A stretch of 64,000 nt of DNA from Bacilli bacterium (GTDB lineage: Bacteria; Bacillota_I; Bacilli_A; RFN20; CAG-826). The stretch's first letter is position 1. The number at the start of each line of letters is the position of its first letter. Below the pieces are notes generated by a model that was not told where the DNA came from, ran no database searches, and worked only from the letters and a program-made list of their open reading frames with translations. The DNA lies in assembly GCA_017940265.1 (NCBI GenBank), contig JAGAYY010000022.1, positions 6,946-70,945 on the forward strand, in the 5' to 3' direction. The translations under genes were made by a program, and so were the position numbers. Of this stretch, positions 60,975 through 63,899 are shown in pieces.

Positions 60975-63899
60975 ATGAAAAGAAAACGATACAAATATTT
61001 TTTACCTATGATTTCAATTGGAATGATGATTATGGGTATGTACGGTTTAAAAGTAACATCTTTTGAATCGATGGTTGCTGAAACACCAAATTATTACACC
61101 CCTATCTCGCCTCAAGCAACTGGCGAAAGTCTAAATCAAGCTATTCGTTTGGATAGCCCTCATGACAATCTGAAACCTAGTTTTACTTTTTTTATTCATG
61201 GTCTTGGTGGAGATGCTAGCGACTGGTCAAATGATTTATATTATGATTGTAATAACGGCACAATAATTGGCAATGGTAATTTTGAATGGAATAGTAAATC
61301 ATTACTCAAAAAAATTGCATATGAACAAAACGCTGCTGTTTATGTCGCTAAATATGTGAGTAATAATCATTTTACTTATTGTCGGTAAGATGAAAAAGTT
61401 ATGAATGGGGAAATCATATATGACGAAATCGAAGAAAAAAGGAATTATCTAAGTGATACACTTTCTCATAATTTAATCGTTTATGAATCTGATGATGCCA
61501 AGCAATCGCTTGATGATGAATTCAATCACTTTGAACACATAGTTAATACATTATGTTATGACTACAAGAGACTTCATGGCTTTGTTCCAAAAATAAACTT
61601 AATTGGGCATTCAAGGGGAGGTCTTGTCGCACAAAAATACGTGAATGAATATCCATATAATGTTTATGGTTATTACAATATAGGCACACCTTACCGTGGT
61701 TCAAATTCTATGGAATTGGCAATCCAAATCAAAAACACAATTGGTGATATTTTTAATTTGAATGATAATGATGATTTTGCTTTTGCTAGTGCTGCGTATC
61801 AAGATTTTCTGAATACAAATTTATTCAACAACCTTATGAATGACTGGAATTCGCTTAAAAGCGACGAACAAAATCCCCTTTCATTGACTGGCAAATCATA
61901 CGCTGGTGTTATGACTTTGGATTACGCCAAAGAAATGATGTTTAAGGCATGTCAAGAACACTCGGTGCAAATAGATGACTACTACGTTAGAGCGGTTACG
62001 GATTTGTTGGACGATATTAAAGAATTATGCATAACAGATTATAGCGGACAAAACTACAATATTAATGCTTTGCTAACTTACAGAGATTATCAAAAAGCGT
62101 GTTCTAAACTAAGTTCTGCAGCAAAAAGTAGTATACGTGATCTTATCTATTCAAAGATAAGCACTATAATTCAAGAATTAACTGAAGAAGACATTGAAAA
62201 ATATCAATTCGTTCCAATTCTTCGCTGGCTAGTTAAATATGCTGTTTGTCCTACTGTTAATTCTCTTCTTAAAATGACTTTCTTTGAGAGCCAAGTAATT
62301 CCATTTATTGTTGATTCGTTGGCGTCGTTTAATGGAAATGTCGCGATTTTTGAAAGTGATGGATTAGTTAGTTTAGAATCACAATGGGGAGAGGGCTATC
62401 AAGGACACGAAACATATGTAAAGGTTTTTGACGAAAGATATCTTCAATTAAGTACTATTACTCCTACTATGGATGACGTTCTTGCTGGGCATAATTTGGA
62501 AACTTTTGATAACGATATTACTAATGATATTGTCGTAAAAGGAAAATTTCCAAGTTATGATGAACTCCACTATAACATCGTTTTCGGCGACGAAGGGAAA
62601 GCCAATTATAGTCCGTTGAACAACGGTCCTATTGCAGATACTGTTGTCTTGTTTGAAATTGATGGGAAAAATCTCGGCAATAATTTAGTAATTAATCCTC
62701 GCTTAGAGATTGAAAATAGAGAAACAGACCTCACTATTAGGCTAACTAATTTTAAAACAGTTGTCGGTGTGTCATCTTCTTATGAAAGTAAACCTTTTAT
62801 CGAATATTTAGGAAGCCACCGATTCAATCTAACAATTGAGTATGAAGGAACAAATTCCTTTACCTATAGTTCTTCCTACTTTAGACAATATGACTCACCC
62901 AAATATCCTGTTATTAGGTGCAGGAATGTAAATATTAAATTTGAACCGCTCACAACTAATTCAAGTTTGGTTTTAAAAGCTGCAAATGGTGGTAATGCCA
63001 TTTTTAATTCGTTGTCTGATAAGCCTGGCCAAGTTTTAACTGATAGCAATAGAAATGGTTACAATGGAGAAAATGGGGCTAATGGCAACGATGGAGCATC
63101 TGGTAGTAATTGCGTCGATTGTAAGGCCATTGATCTTAGCTGTGCTAGAAATCTTACATTGCAAGGCGGCAACGGCGGTAATGGAAGTCGTGGTGGCCAT
63201 GGTGGTAGTGGTGCTAACGGCAAAACGCTACCTGGTGGCTATAAAGGAGGAAACGGCGGCAATGGTGGCCGTGGCGGCAATGGTGGCCATGGTGGCGATG
63301 GTGGACTTGCTATATATTGTGAAAATGTAACCCTAGCAGACAATGACTATGCAAGCAGTGGGATAAAATTGTACCCAGGTAAACCAGGAAATGGTGCTAA
63401 TGGTGGCAATGGTGGCAATGGTGGCAAAGGCGCTAATGGATCATGGTTCCAATTCTTGTGGGTAAATAACGATTATGCAGGTGGCAACGGTGGCTTAGTT
63501 GGCTACGGAGGCTGTTCCGGGATCCCTAACTGTGGAAATGCTTCTTTCGATAATATTGATGCTTATTGGGAAATGGTTGATCAAGCAATAAATAAAAAAC
63601 TACTTTCAGCTAGTGGTGGCTATGGTGGTTTGATATATGGTAATGGTGGCAATTCCGGATTTGGAAGTAGAGAAAAGCACAACTATGACGGAATTCCGGG
63701 CAAAGCCGTTGAGTCATACAATGTTTTAAATGGAATGTATGGAATGCATAGCTCTCTTTTTATGCCAAGCCCTAATGGCCAAATTTATATTCTTACCAAC
63801 GGAACAGGATATGATGATTCTGGAATGGAAGTTTGGTATAACAAACAGGCAACTAAATACGGAAAAAGTGGAGTAGCTGAATACTTTCATAATCCTTAG
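60975..63899 (+). pseudogene. secreted lipase-like alpha/beta hydrolase with Gly/Asn-rich collagen-like C-terminal repeats, interrupted by a single in-frame TAA (60975-61388 and 61401-63899 are in the same frame)
   Basis: ORF 1 (137 aa) has a signal/TM and the oxyanion-hole motif FFIHGLGGDASDW. TAA at 61386-61388 is followed in frame by D-E-K-V then ORF 2 (832 aa), which carries the nucleophile elbow LIGHSRGGLV and GXY/GGN triplet repeats. Confidence 0.55.
63050..63440 (+). repeat. coding triplet-repeat region (GGN/GXY; for example AATGGTGGC x3)
   Basis: Runs of ggtggcaatggtggcaatggtggcaaa and ggcggcaacggcggtaatgg encoding GGNGGNGG, GENGANGNDGASGSN and similar triplet repeats. Confidence 0.7.

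Follow-up and report, generated by a model that had tools for sequence, protein, structure and literature searches.

The described enzymes that the hydrolase considered here appears to resemble most are the bacterial true lipases of families I.1 and I.2, such as those of P. aeruginosa (LipA), B. cepacia, and B. glumae (structures 1ex9, 2lip, 1ys1, 1tah, and 1cvl). These are secreted proteins of the alpha/beta-hydrolase fold, in which a strand of hydrophobic residues runs into an H-G-L-x-G oxyanion motif, the nucleophilic serine lies within NLIGHSQGGL...TPHRGS, and a Ca2+ site, a disulphide, and the foldase Lif are characteristic. For its glycine-rich C-terminus, three other groups invite comparison: bacterial collagen-like proteins with G-X-Y triplets (PF01391; Scl, BclA), the antifreeze proteins of springtails or snow fleas (7jjv, 2pne), which are bundles of polyglycine- or polyproline-II (PPII) helices and carry (GGX)n runs of glycine-rich triplets, and mycobacterial PE_PGRS proteins, some of which have an enzymatic domain attached and whose PGRS domains have been proposed to form a polyglycine-II (PGII) sandwich (PMC9436101).

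The gene lies in a window (the whole stretch of DNA analysed) of 64,000 nucleotides, whose positions are used throughout (Table 1). The gene's host is an uncultured ruminant-gut bacterium. According to the predicted model, the protein would consist of a signal peptide, an alpha/beta-hydrolase domain like that of family I lipases, bearing a large lid of helices, then a beta-sandwich, and last a glycine-rich module of the polyglycine-II type.

Table 1. Features of the hydrolase gene and its surroundings (window positions)
Feature	Position	Strand	Description
Terminator-like hairpin, U-run after it	60677..60713	+	MFE -23.3 kcal/mol, z -5.35; 0/200 shuffles fold as well
Shine-Dalgarno sequence GGAGG	60958..60962	+	12 nt 5' of ATG 60975; anti-SD duplex -10.0 kcal/mol
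ORF1, coding part	60975..61385	+	137 codons: signal peptide, strand beta3, HG motif, strand beta4
Signal peptide	~60975-61079	+	Basic n-region KRKRYKY, hydrophobic core, SMVA↓E site
HG oxyanion motif	61197-61202	+	CAT GGT
Premature ochre stop	61386..61388	+	TAA; TAT (Tyr) in intact alleles; equivalent to Tyr127 of P0001
Rest of the reading frame	61389..63899	+	Nucleophile Ser, candidate acid Asp, candidate His
GHSRG elbow	61605-61619	+
Nucleophile Ser	61611-61613	+	TCA, within GHSRGG
All-helical insertion	61704..62315	+	~200 aa, from Ser elbow to Asp strand; helices at P0001 residues 233-436, pLDDT mostly 65-85
Candidate acid Asp	62358-62360	+	GAT
Candidate His	62490-62492	+	CAT
Beta-sandwich middle domain	62565..62987	+	Strands at residues 531-657, pLDDT 80-92
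Glycine-rich module	62988..63584	+	(GGX)n runs, 5-8 triplets each, in alternation with short hydrophobic beta-strands; pLDDT 72, pTM 0.70
C-terminal beta-rich tail	63585..63896	+	Conserved motifs GDGTPGKAV, QPTYG
Terminator-like hairpin, then UUUUCUUUU	63930..63959	+	MFE -14.8 kcal/mol, z -3.12

One gene annotated as two

NCBI annotates the locus as two separate CDSs, MBP3732012.1 and MBP3732013.1. ORF1 (60975..61388, + strand, 137 aa) contains FFIHGLGGD and closes with the TAA at 61386-61388. Four sense codons (GAT GAA AAA GTT) intervene before the ATG at 61401 that opens ORF2 (61401..63899, + strand, 832 aa), which contains LIGHSRGG and is in the frame of ORF1. Translating 60975-63899 as a unit gives 975 codons with a single internal stop, the protein letters at the junction being FTYCR, the stop (X), and then DEKVMNGEIIYDEIEEK, beginning DEKVMNG.

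The signals for expression are those of one gene. The Shine-Dalgarno duplex at ORF1 is far stronger than the window median of -5.7 kcal/mol, whereas that at ATG 61401 is weak (-3.0 kcal/mol), and ORF2 has no ribosome-binding site or other independent expression signals of its own. Folding detected terminator-like hairpins on both sides, flanking one transcription unit. The upstream hairpin closes the preceding GH3 gene, so the hydrolase gene begins its own transcription unit, which closes at the downstream hairpin. A functional tie to the flanking GH3 genes (as a carbohydrate esterase) was considered but is not supported, since homologues in L002 and L003 have no GH3 gene nearby; the context of those two homologues differs from that in the window but is alike between them.

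The relatives of the protein confirm what the sequence-only reading had proposed, that a single alpha/beta-hydrolase gene, cut by one nonsense codon, accounts for both ORFs. All ten members of a set of family proteins (P0001-P0010) are single proteins of 966-1029 aa that run intact across the junction, whether close to the window protein (P0001, 95% identity) or distant from it (P0002-P0010, 34-55%), and at least six near-identical intact alleles (97-99% at the nucleotide level) likewise each encode a single protein in that size range. At the position of the break, eight of the ten have Tyr or Phe, and P0006 and P0007 have Gln. More broadly, a region like ORF1 lies N-terminal to the serine elbow in essentially all of 72 homologues, none of which is organised as two genes. 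In every homologue the HG and GHSRGG motifs share a single domain, and the predicted model agrees. A scan of genome contigs did not find the window itself and turned up a single full-length relative (L003, 52% identity). Because the homologues are single proteins spanning the junction, the two ORFs have not come to lie side by side by chance: one gene, at 60975-63899, encodes a secreted protein of about 975 aa.

No second split of this kind occurs in the window. The other pairs of neighbouring ORFs in the same frame are distinct, complete genes, and general genome decay or a systematic error in this window was rejected on those grounds.

A young nonsense mutation

The difference between the broken gene and its intact counterparts is a T-to-A change at 61388, which turns TAT, the codon of a conserved Tyr, into TAA. 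The codon is TAT in each of the five intact alleles inspected at the DNA level (including L001, the closest intact allele, L057, and L058), and the stop is private to the window allele among the six alleles compared. It falls within an inserted beta-hairpin that separates beta4 from helix B.

The TAA is present in seven contigs. Five of these (L052-L056, from SRR12529174, ERZ27256933, SAMN15830141, SAMN15830096, and SAMN15830127) come from different samples and are 100% identical over 3338 nt, and the other two (L059 and L060) are one SNP away. The samples were separately assembled through at least two pipelines (Logan unitigs, ENA k141 assemblies, and XIEF21-1 scaffolds), and all seemingly belong to one study cohort.

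Apart from the stop, the private changes of the allele number nine synonymous and one non-synonymous, there are no frameshifts, and the sole indel is in frame. The dN/dS ratio is 0.145 upstream of the stop and 0.171 downstream, and neither relaxed selection nor further lesions were seen in the downstream part. The lack of other lesions, the low ratio on both sides, and the excess of synonymous private changes point to a recent event. The stop is thus real, evolutionarily young, and common to one clonal lineage found in several metagenomes.

What would such an allele produce? Translation would stop after 137 residues, leaving a short product with the signal peptide, strands beta3 and beta4, and the oxyanion HG loop, which would lack the nucleophile Ser and the candidate Asp and His. 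Re-initiation at ATG 61401, if there is any, would yield a cytoplasmic fragment of 832 aa that has no signal peptide, no central beta3, and no oxyanion loop. Since neither fragment could be an active exported enzyme, the allele would be a strain-specific loss of function. That it is such an allele, a nascent pseudogene, is the best reading and a highly probable one. The sequence-only reading had offered three explanations of the stop (a recent nonsense mutation, a sequencing error, or a site of readthrough), and it is the first that the TAT of the intact alleles, the absence of other lesions, and the low dN/dS bear out.

The unscathed downstream part and the mostly synonymous private changes are also what continued selection would be expected to leave, by way of either leaky readthrough or re-initiation.

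Perhaps, then, the gene still works: the TAA would be read through, whether by leakage or as a programmed event, to provide some full-length exported enzyme, and the stop would act as an attenuator of expression. The absence of secondary lesions, a dN/dS of about 0.17 past the stop that fits purifying selection, and the occurrence of the allele in several samples would all suit this. The carriers, however, are zero to one SNP apart, and so the allele is too young to have decayed, which makes its intactness uninformative. Moreover, UAA is the least leaky of bacterial stop codons, TAA is the predominant stop in the window (31 of 45 ORFs), no stimulatory RNA structure is found around the site (z 0.21), and the window holds no tRNA gene, hence no suppressor tRNA. 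Readthrough is for these reasons very improbable. (Reassignment of the stop codon was discarded on the same count of window ORFs.)

Or perhaps two polypeptides are made, ribosomes that end at the TAA re-initiating at ATG 61401 to give an 832-aa product that functions alone or complements the 137-aa piece. Short-range termination-reinitiation is known in bacteria, an in-frame ATG stands 12 nt past the stop, and the NCBI annotation has two CDSs. Against this, the intact alleles L057 and L058 have that ATG as well, which shows that it predates the stop and is not an adaptation to it; the notion of a compensatory restart codon was dropped accordingly. The weak Shine-Dalgarno pairing of ORF2, its want of beta3 and the oxyanion loop, and the absence of any two-gene arrangement among the homologues count further against it, as does the prospect that the two pieces would end up in different compartments, ORF1 being exported and ORF2 having no signal peptide. 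Two functional polypeptides are very improbable.

That the TAA arose from an error of sequencing or assembly and the true genome has TAT (only one base separates it from the intact alleles, and the carriers seemingly come from one project) is most improbable of all and was rejected, because the TAA stands in seven separately assembled contigs with flanks 100% identical, and the identical allele recurs in five or more assemblies, each of a different sample.

The catalytic domain

The N-terminus is of the Sec type, the cleavage site agreeing with the A-x-A↓D/E conserved in homologues. Further on, the predicted model puts a strand at residues 57-63 of SFTFFIHGLGG, followed by the HG, consistent with an HG-type oxyanion loop directly after beta3. 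H64 is nearly invariant and G65, G67, and G68 are invariant among ten family members, and the segment 'vlthGlgg' is collinear with ILVHGLAG of solved lipases, though the match is not significant alone. The elbow (G200, H201, S202, R203, and G204) is invariant in the same ten proteins and in a superfamily alignment of 19 sequences; in the model it follows a strand (195-201) and precedes a helix (204-214). S202, D451, and H495 (in GHNLET), which are S213, D462, and H506 in the fused window protein, do not vary and follow the canonical order, with the pLDDT of the model below 50 at 451-453 and 480-500. Alignments and model alike thus suggest a serine hydrolase of the alpha/beta type, with its elbow and HG oxyanion loop. 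The helical insertion is taken, from the model, to be a lid or cap domain. A Pfam scan found no family match for the beta-sandwich that follows.

Lipase activity may be proposed from a homology that is weak. A profile search of PDB matched the lipases of Burkholderia, Chromobacterium, and Pseudomonas at E 1.5e-12 with about 50 residues aligned, and the best Foldseek matches were to these lipases as well, 2lip and 1ys1 at E 1.7e-4 (some 290 columns aligned, with a TMt of 0.35 and an rmsd of 8 A). Comparison by hhalign with a Burkholderia lipase aligned only the elbow locally. These matches and the invariant S, D, and H favour the earlier description of a lipase-like enzyme, and the catalytic domain appears closest to the true lipases of families I.1 and I.2.

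Like those lipases, the window protein is (by prediction) secreted, has an oxyanion strand motif of the same type, and carries NLIGHSRGGL...TPYRGS around its elbow, with Arg in place of their Gln. It differs in an extra insertion of 60-80 residues that separates beta4 from helix B, in its helical lid (about 200 aa), and in some 450 additional C-terminal residues. No evidence was found in it for the Ca2+ site, the disulphide, or dependence on Lif, and no foldase-like gene adjoins the hydrolase gene in the window.

Profiles of three other families, DUF915 (PF06028), Palm_thioest (PF02089), and PGAP1 (PF07819), match weakly near the nucleophile elbow over 50-110 residues of each. DUF915 reaches E 5.7e-5 and 23.0 bits against a cut-off of 22 (homologues reach 32 bits). 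For PGAP1 and Palm_thioest, the scores of the window protein lie under the gathering cut-offs, and the suggestion of a PGAP1-like fold was not confirmed as family membership.

The glycine-rich C-terminal module

Glycine accounts for 24% of residues in the last 314 aa and 5.6% of those before them, so the glycine-rich C-terminus noticed earlier is real. Five distinct runs of 5-8 Gly-rich triplets each lie between 63057 and 63527, their Gly positions invariant across the family. In five of the six runs found, 2 to 7 triplets are GGX or GXG, and all runs combined contain one Pro. The underlying DNA includes 9- and 18-nt tandem repeats, and a 9-nt in-frame deletion near 63483 is private to the window allele. 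The tail beyond the module has no LPXTG motif.

The sequence-only reading had called these repeats collagen-like, a view that does not hold. There is one stretch of true G-X-Y, six triplets long (GYN GEN GAN GND GAS GSN, 63057-63110), and a distant relative, P0090, has in the same place a longer G-X-Y run that does match PF01391. Compared with bacterial collagen-like proteins, however, the runs are broken up and not long enough, with GG doublets prevailing and Pro nearly absent; neither ORF2 nor the fused protein matches Pfam Collagen (PF01391) at E up to 1. The predicted structure appears to resemble instead the PPII and PGII helix bundles. The (GGX)n segments are modelled with neither alpha nor beta assignment at pLDDT 80-89, and the only PDB neighbours of the module are such bundles: 7jjv_A at the top (E 4.2e-6, prob 0.91), then 2pne and 3bog, with TM of only 0.13-0.29 and a model built from an 11-sequence alignment. 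A fold search of BFVD gave only low-TM matches that look driven by composition. The tail is accordingly predicted to be a module of polyglycine-II helices, not collagen.

The likeness to the antifreeze proteins lies in the (GGX)n runs, and that to PE_PGRS proteins is by analogy only. As in some PE_PGRS members, the module comes joined to an enzyme, and as in PGII/PGRS systems, the DNA of its repeats is prone to slippage, alleles differing by an in-frame indel. Unlike PGII/PPII bundles and PGRS domains, it is interleaved with beta-strands and Cys residues. It departs from PGRS also in its non-mycobacterial origin and in having Asn, His, Arg, or Asp at X where PGRS has Ala, and Pfam finds no PE domain, the N-terminus being a Sec-type signal peptide.

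The combination of parts had been thought unusual. That stands for the full architecture, which defines a very small family, but not for the glycine-rich module, which recurs in hundreds of uncharacterised proteins. The A3 profile of the module has 858 matches at E up to 1e-3, and the ten of these that were scanned gave no Pfam match to the module. It is a tentative and rather doubtful idea that secreted bacterial proteins of non-mycobacterial origin share a large family of polyglycine-II-type domains, as yet uncurated, to which the module belongs. Here it would carry a lipase-like enzyme as the counterpart, in a low-GC gut bacterium, of the PE_PGRS 'sail', displaying the enzyme at the cell surface and varying in length by repeat slippage.

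Discussion

In itself the split matters little, being an ordinary strain-level knockout of an accessory secreted hydrolase. It does call for a correction, in that MBP3732012.1 and MBP3732013.1 should become one pseudogene, and it provides an example of allele-level gene loss inside a gut species. Where the gene is intact, its product would most likely be an extracellular or surface lipase/esterase, and the glycine-rich module may serve as a rigid, slippage-variable domain for display or adhesion. The intact family, small and uncharacterised, comprises lipase-like exoenzymes of uncultured Bacilli from ruminant and other animal guts and is of moderate interest. If the polyglycine-II prediction is true, then the PGII-sandwich architecture would extend to many unannotated bacterial surface proteins.

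One gene, interrupted by a single codon

Translated in one frame, the hydrolase gene (60975-63899) gives 975 codons with one internal stop, after which the frame runs GAT GAA AAA GTT ATG. Reading the window bears out the anatomy proposed from the sequence alone, that is, two ORFs in the same frame separated by one TAA and four sense codons. The fused sequence, searched against 5.8 billion protein clusters, brought up 72 relatives. The top match, P0001, is an uninterrupted protein of 966 amino acids whose alignment covers 99% of the query at 95% identity. Homologues P0002-P0010 (978-1029 amino acids, 34-55% identity) are uninterrupted too, and their alignment to the query stays colinear all the way from the signal peptide to the C-terminal residues. 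Where the query has its internal stop, 8 of the 10 proteins P0001-P0010 carry Tyr or Phe (FTYCR-Y-DEK), and P0006 and P0007 carry Gln. A local jackhmmer search of the 72 relatives with residues 36-137 of ORF1 found an ORF1-like segment in essentially all of them, including distant proteins of 1100-1700 amino acids, with the GHSxG elbow of that protein always following shortly after it. The HG and GHSRGG motifs thus belong to one domain, as the sequence-only reading had it, and the orthologues are single intact proteins, not two genes, so the one-gene, one-domain reading stands.

In the public annotation, the halves are separate CDSs, without a flag as one pseudogene. The ORF1 product is MBP3732012.1 (hypothetical protein) and the ORF2 product is MBP3732013.1 ("MAG: alpha/beta hydrolase [Bacilli bacterium]"); the two share a 90% cluster with intact forms of 966 and 977 amino acids.

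Features of the hydrolase gene and its surroundings (window coordinates unless stated)
Feature	Position	Strand	Remark
PEPCK, oxaloacetate decarboxylase alpha (carboxyltransferase), biotin-carrier protein, Na+-pumping beta subunit	34755-39826		in this order
Two adjoining ORFs between htpG and GH3	55679-56959, 56973-57416		426 + 147 aa
Upstream GH3 gene	57629-60661		1010 aa
Terminator-like hairpin	60677-60713	+	z -5.35
Shine-Dalgarno GGAGG	60958-60962	+	5' of ATG 60975
ORF1, 137 codons, contains SFTFFIHGLGGD	ATG 60975, TAA 61386-61388	+	translation
ORF2, 832 codons, contains NLIGHSRGG	ATG 61401, end 63899	+	same frame as ORF1
9- and 18-nt tandem arrays encoding (GGX)n runs	63255-63304, 63390-63439
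Private in-frame 9-nt deletion in GGN tract	~63483		GGNGGNGG to GGNGG
Terminator-like hairpin	63930-63959	+	z -3.1
Downstream GH3 gene	4232-5499 of contigs L053/L054		1003 aa, past window end

Origin and consequences of the stop

The DNA encoding P0001 (L001), 95.7% identical to window 60650-64000, reads TGC CGA TAT GAT GAA AAA GTT GTG, as against TGT CGG TAA GAT GAA AAA GTT ATG in the window. The closest intact allele, L057 (98.8% nucleotide identity), and L058 (97.0%) have TAT and, downstream of it, the ATG that the window also has. Since TAT stands in all three of these intact alleles, the lesion is one T-to-A transversion, at position 61388. The ATG of ORF2 was considered as a compensatory restart codon and rejected; its presence in L057 and L058 makes it older than the stop.

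Termination at codon 138 would leave a protein with a signal peptide, the HG loop, and strands beta3 and beta4. If translation re-initiated, the 832-residue product would keep the Ser, Asp, and His but be missing the signal peptide, one core strand, and the oxyanion loop, and would not leave the cytoplasm. With both predicted products incomplete, the TAA allele is read as a loss-of-function allele, and very probably is one. Leaky readthrough is very unlikely: TAA is the main stop (ending 31 of the 45 long ORFs in the window), folding gives no RNA structure around it (z 0.21), and the 64-kb window has no tRNA gene. A functional arrangement in two pieces, made of the ORF1 and ORF2 products, is very unlikely, as the second ATG predates the stop and its anti-SD duplex is weak (only -3.0 kcal/mol, against -10.0 for the first ATG and a window median of -5.7). 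The two terminator-like hairpins bracket a single transcription unit. Other same-frame ORF neighbors in the window are complete, unrelated genes (FAD oxidoreductase/F420-ligase-like, PEPCK/carboxylase, and others), so there is no general pattern of in-frame stops.

The exact 832-residue product is encoded on 8 contigs, and the DNA of 5 was read. These (SRR12529174, ERZ27256933, and the per-sample assemblies SAMN15830141, SAMN15830096, and SAMN15830127) all carry TAA at 100% identity to the window over 3,290-3,338 nt. Two more short contigs (SAMN15830142, ERZ27256935) have the TAA as well and differ at one SNP elsewhere. The sources of intact alleles are other studies (SRR25388748, SRR28204444, SRR33322331, SAMN18817895, SRR14556391, GCA_024712465.1). 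With TAA identical over contigs of several samples and intact alleles elsewhere, the stop is a true allele, belonging to a single clonal lineage. A sequencing or assembly artefact, one of the options first entertained, is the least probable account, given five contigs with perfectly matching flanks; the option of a recent nonsense mutation is the one supported, the TAT-to-TAA change being real, recent, and clonal. The species' other sampled strains retain the intact gene, and the split gene is best read as a nascent pseudogene of an ordinary, strain-specific kind.

Nei-Gojobori dN/dS between the window and L001 comes to 0.145 before the stop and 0.171 after it. Of the 11 substitutions private to the window allele among six aligned alleles, nine are synonymous, one is non-synonymous (T544N), and one is the nonsense change; the allele has no frameshift and no second stop. 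Nearly all the divergence therefore arose under purifying selection, and since carriers differ by 0-1 SNP, the stop must be very young. Taken alone, the substitution pattern is also compatible with continued selection on the gene.

The intact protein

Pfam matches around the elbow are weak: DUF915 scores 23 bits (cut-off 22), and Palm_thioest, Abhydrolase_1, and PGAP1 fall under their cut-offs. A profile of 19 diverse family members, searched against solved structures, matches true lipases of family I.1/I.2 (E 1.5e-12; NLIGHSRGGL..TPYxGS versus NLIGHSQGGL..TPHRGS). HMMER aligns the HG strand collinearly with ILVHGLAG, a micro-match not significant alone. The AlphaFold2 model of P0001 (pLDDT 69, pTM 0.54) has the canonical order strand-HG, helix, strand, helix, strand-GHS-helix, and its top Foldseek PDB matches are the lipases that the profile matched (2lip, 1ys1, 1tah; E ~2e-4, ~290 aligned columns, TMt 0.35). 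S202, D451, and H495 (P0001 numbering) are invariant in the family alignment. The catalytic domain carries two large insertions, a helical lid of ~200 residues and a beta-hairpin region that separates beta4 from helix B, and in the model the stop position falls within the latter. The label "lipase-like" is supported as a resemblance to I.1/I.2 lipases.

The predicted signal peptide has a basic n-region, a 17-residue hydrophobic core, and, in the alignment, a conserved A-x-A|D/E-type site; the protein has no LPXTG motif. Directly after the core (61011-61022; P0001 13-16), GLKE is invariant in all 10 intact members aligned, at identities down to 34%; the window allele and homologues P0076 and P0084 have GLKV. 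The c-region of a signal peptide is seldom so conserved, and these residues may be a motif for sorting or processing.

In the last 314 residues, glycine accounts for 24%, versus 5.6% in the residues before. This tail had been called collagen-like, a description that does not hold: Pfam Collagen finds no match in the window protein, and runs with Gly at every third position extend only 5-8 triplets, mostly GGX and almost Pro-free, separated by Cys residues and hydrophobic strands. In a separate model of residues 661-974 of the window protein (pLDDT 72, pTM 0.70), the Gly runs have no alpha/beta assignment at pLDDT 80-89. The model's only significant PDB neighbors are the antifreeze proteins of springtails and snow fleas, built as bundles of polyproline/polyglycine-II helices (7jjv, E 4e-6, prob 0.91; 2pne and 3bog weaker; TM-scores low). 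Collagen was accordingly rejected, and a polyglycine-II-type module is the reading the model favors. The tail agrees with the architecture that PMC9436101 proposes for the PGRS domains of mycobacteria, but the hydrolase protein has no PE domain, so the likeness to PE_PGRS is one of analogy, not membership.

The tail profile, searched against 1.84 billion representative proteins, matched 858 at E <=1e-3 but only 7 at E <=1e-30; the full architecture is therefore rare, while the Gly-rich core turns up again in many proteins, 250-3300 amino acids long. None of 10 scanned relatives has a Pfam match on the Gly-rich module; one matches Collagen through a genuine G-X-Y run, and in another a different part of the protein has a weak match to a peptidase. 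In the N-terminally truncated P0090, 13 G-X-Y triplets (residues 362-401; Pfam Collagen, E 1.3e-6) occupy the place of six in the window protein, so the first Gly run varies across the family from collagen-like to GGX-like. The tandem arrays in the tail DNA and the 9-nt deletion relative to five intact alleles suggest slippage-driven length polymorphism of the module.

Genomic setting

The window is ordinary low-GC bacterial chromosomal DNA (GC 36%), with genes for AddAB-like nuclease/helicase, RluA, Hsp20, HtpG, PEPCK, oxaloacetate decarboxylase, and GH3. The genes from PEPCK through the decarboxylase subunits would form a compact cluster for sodium-motive decarboxylation. Large GH3 genes flank the hydrolase gene and are not conserved around the homologues in L002 and L003. 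The upstream GH3 protein has a hydrophobic N-terminal segment and a permuted Pfam order (GH3_C 163-448, Fn3-like 514-584, GH3_N 754-955). The adjoining ORFs between it and htpG have no Pfam match at E <=1e-5. Relatives of the hydrolase domain occur in MAGs of Anaeroplasmataceae, Acholeplasmataceae, Christensenella, and other gut Bacillota. The only element here that is even moderately novel is this uncharacterized protein family, with its uncurated glycine-rich domain.
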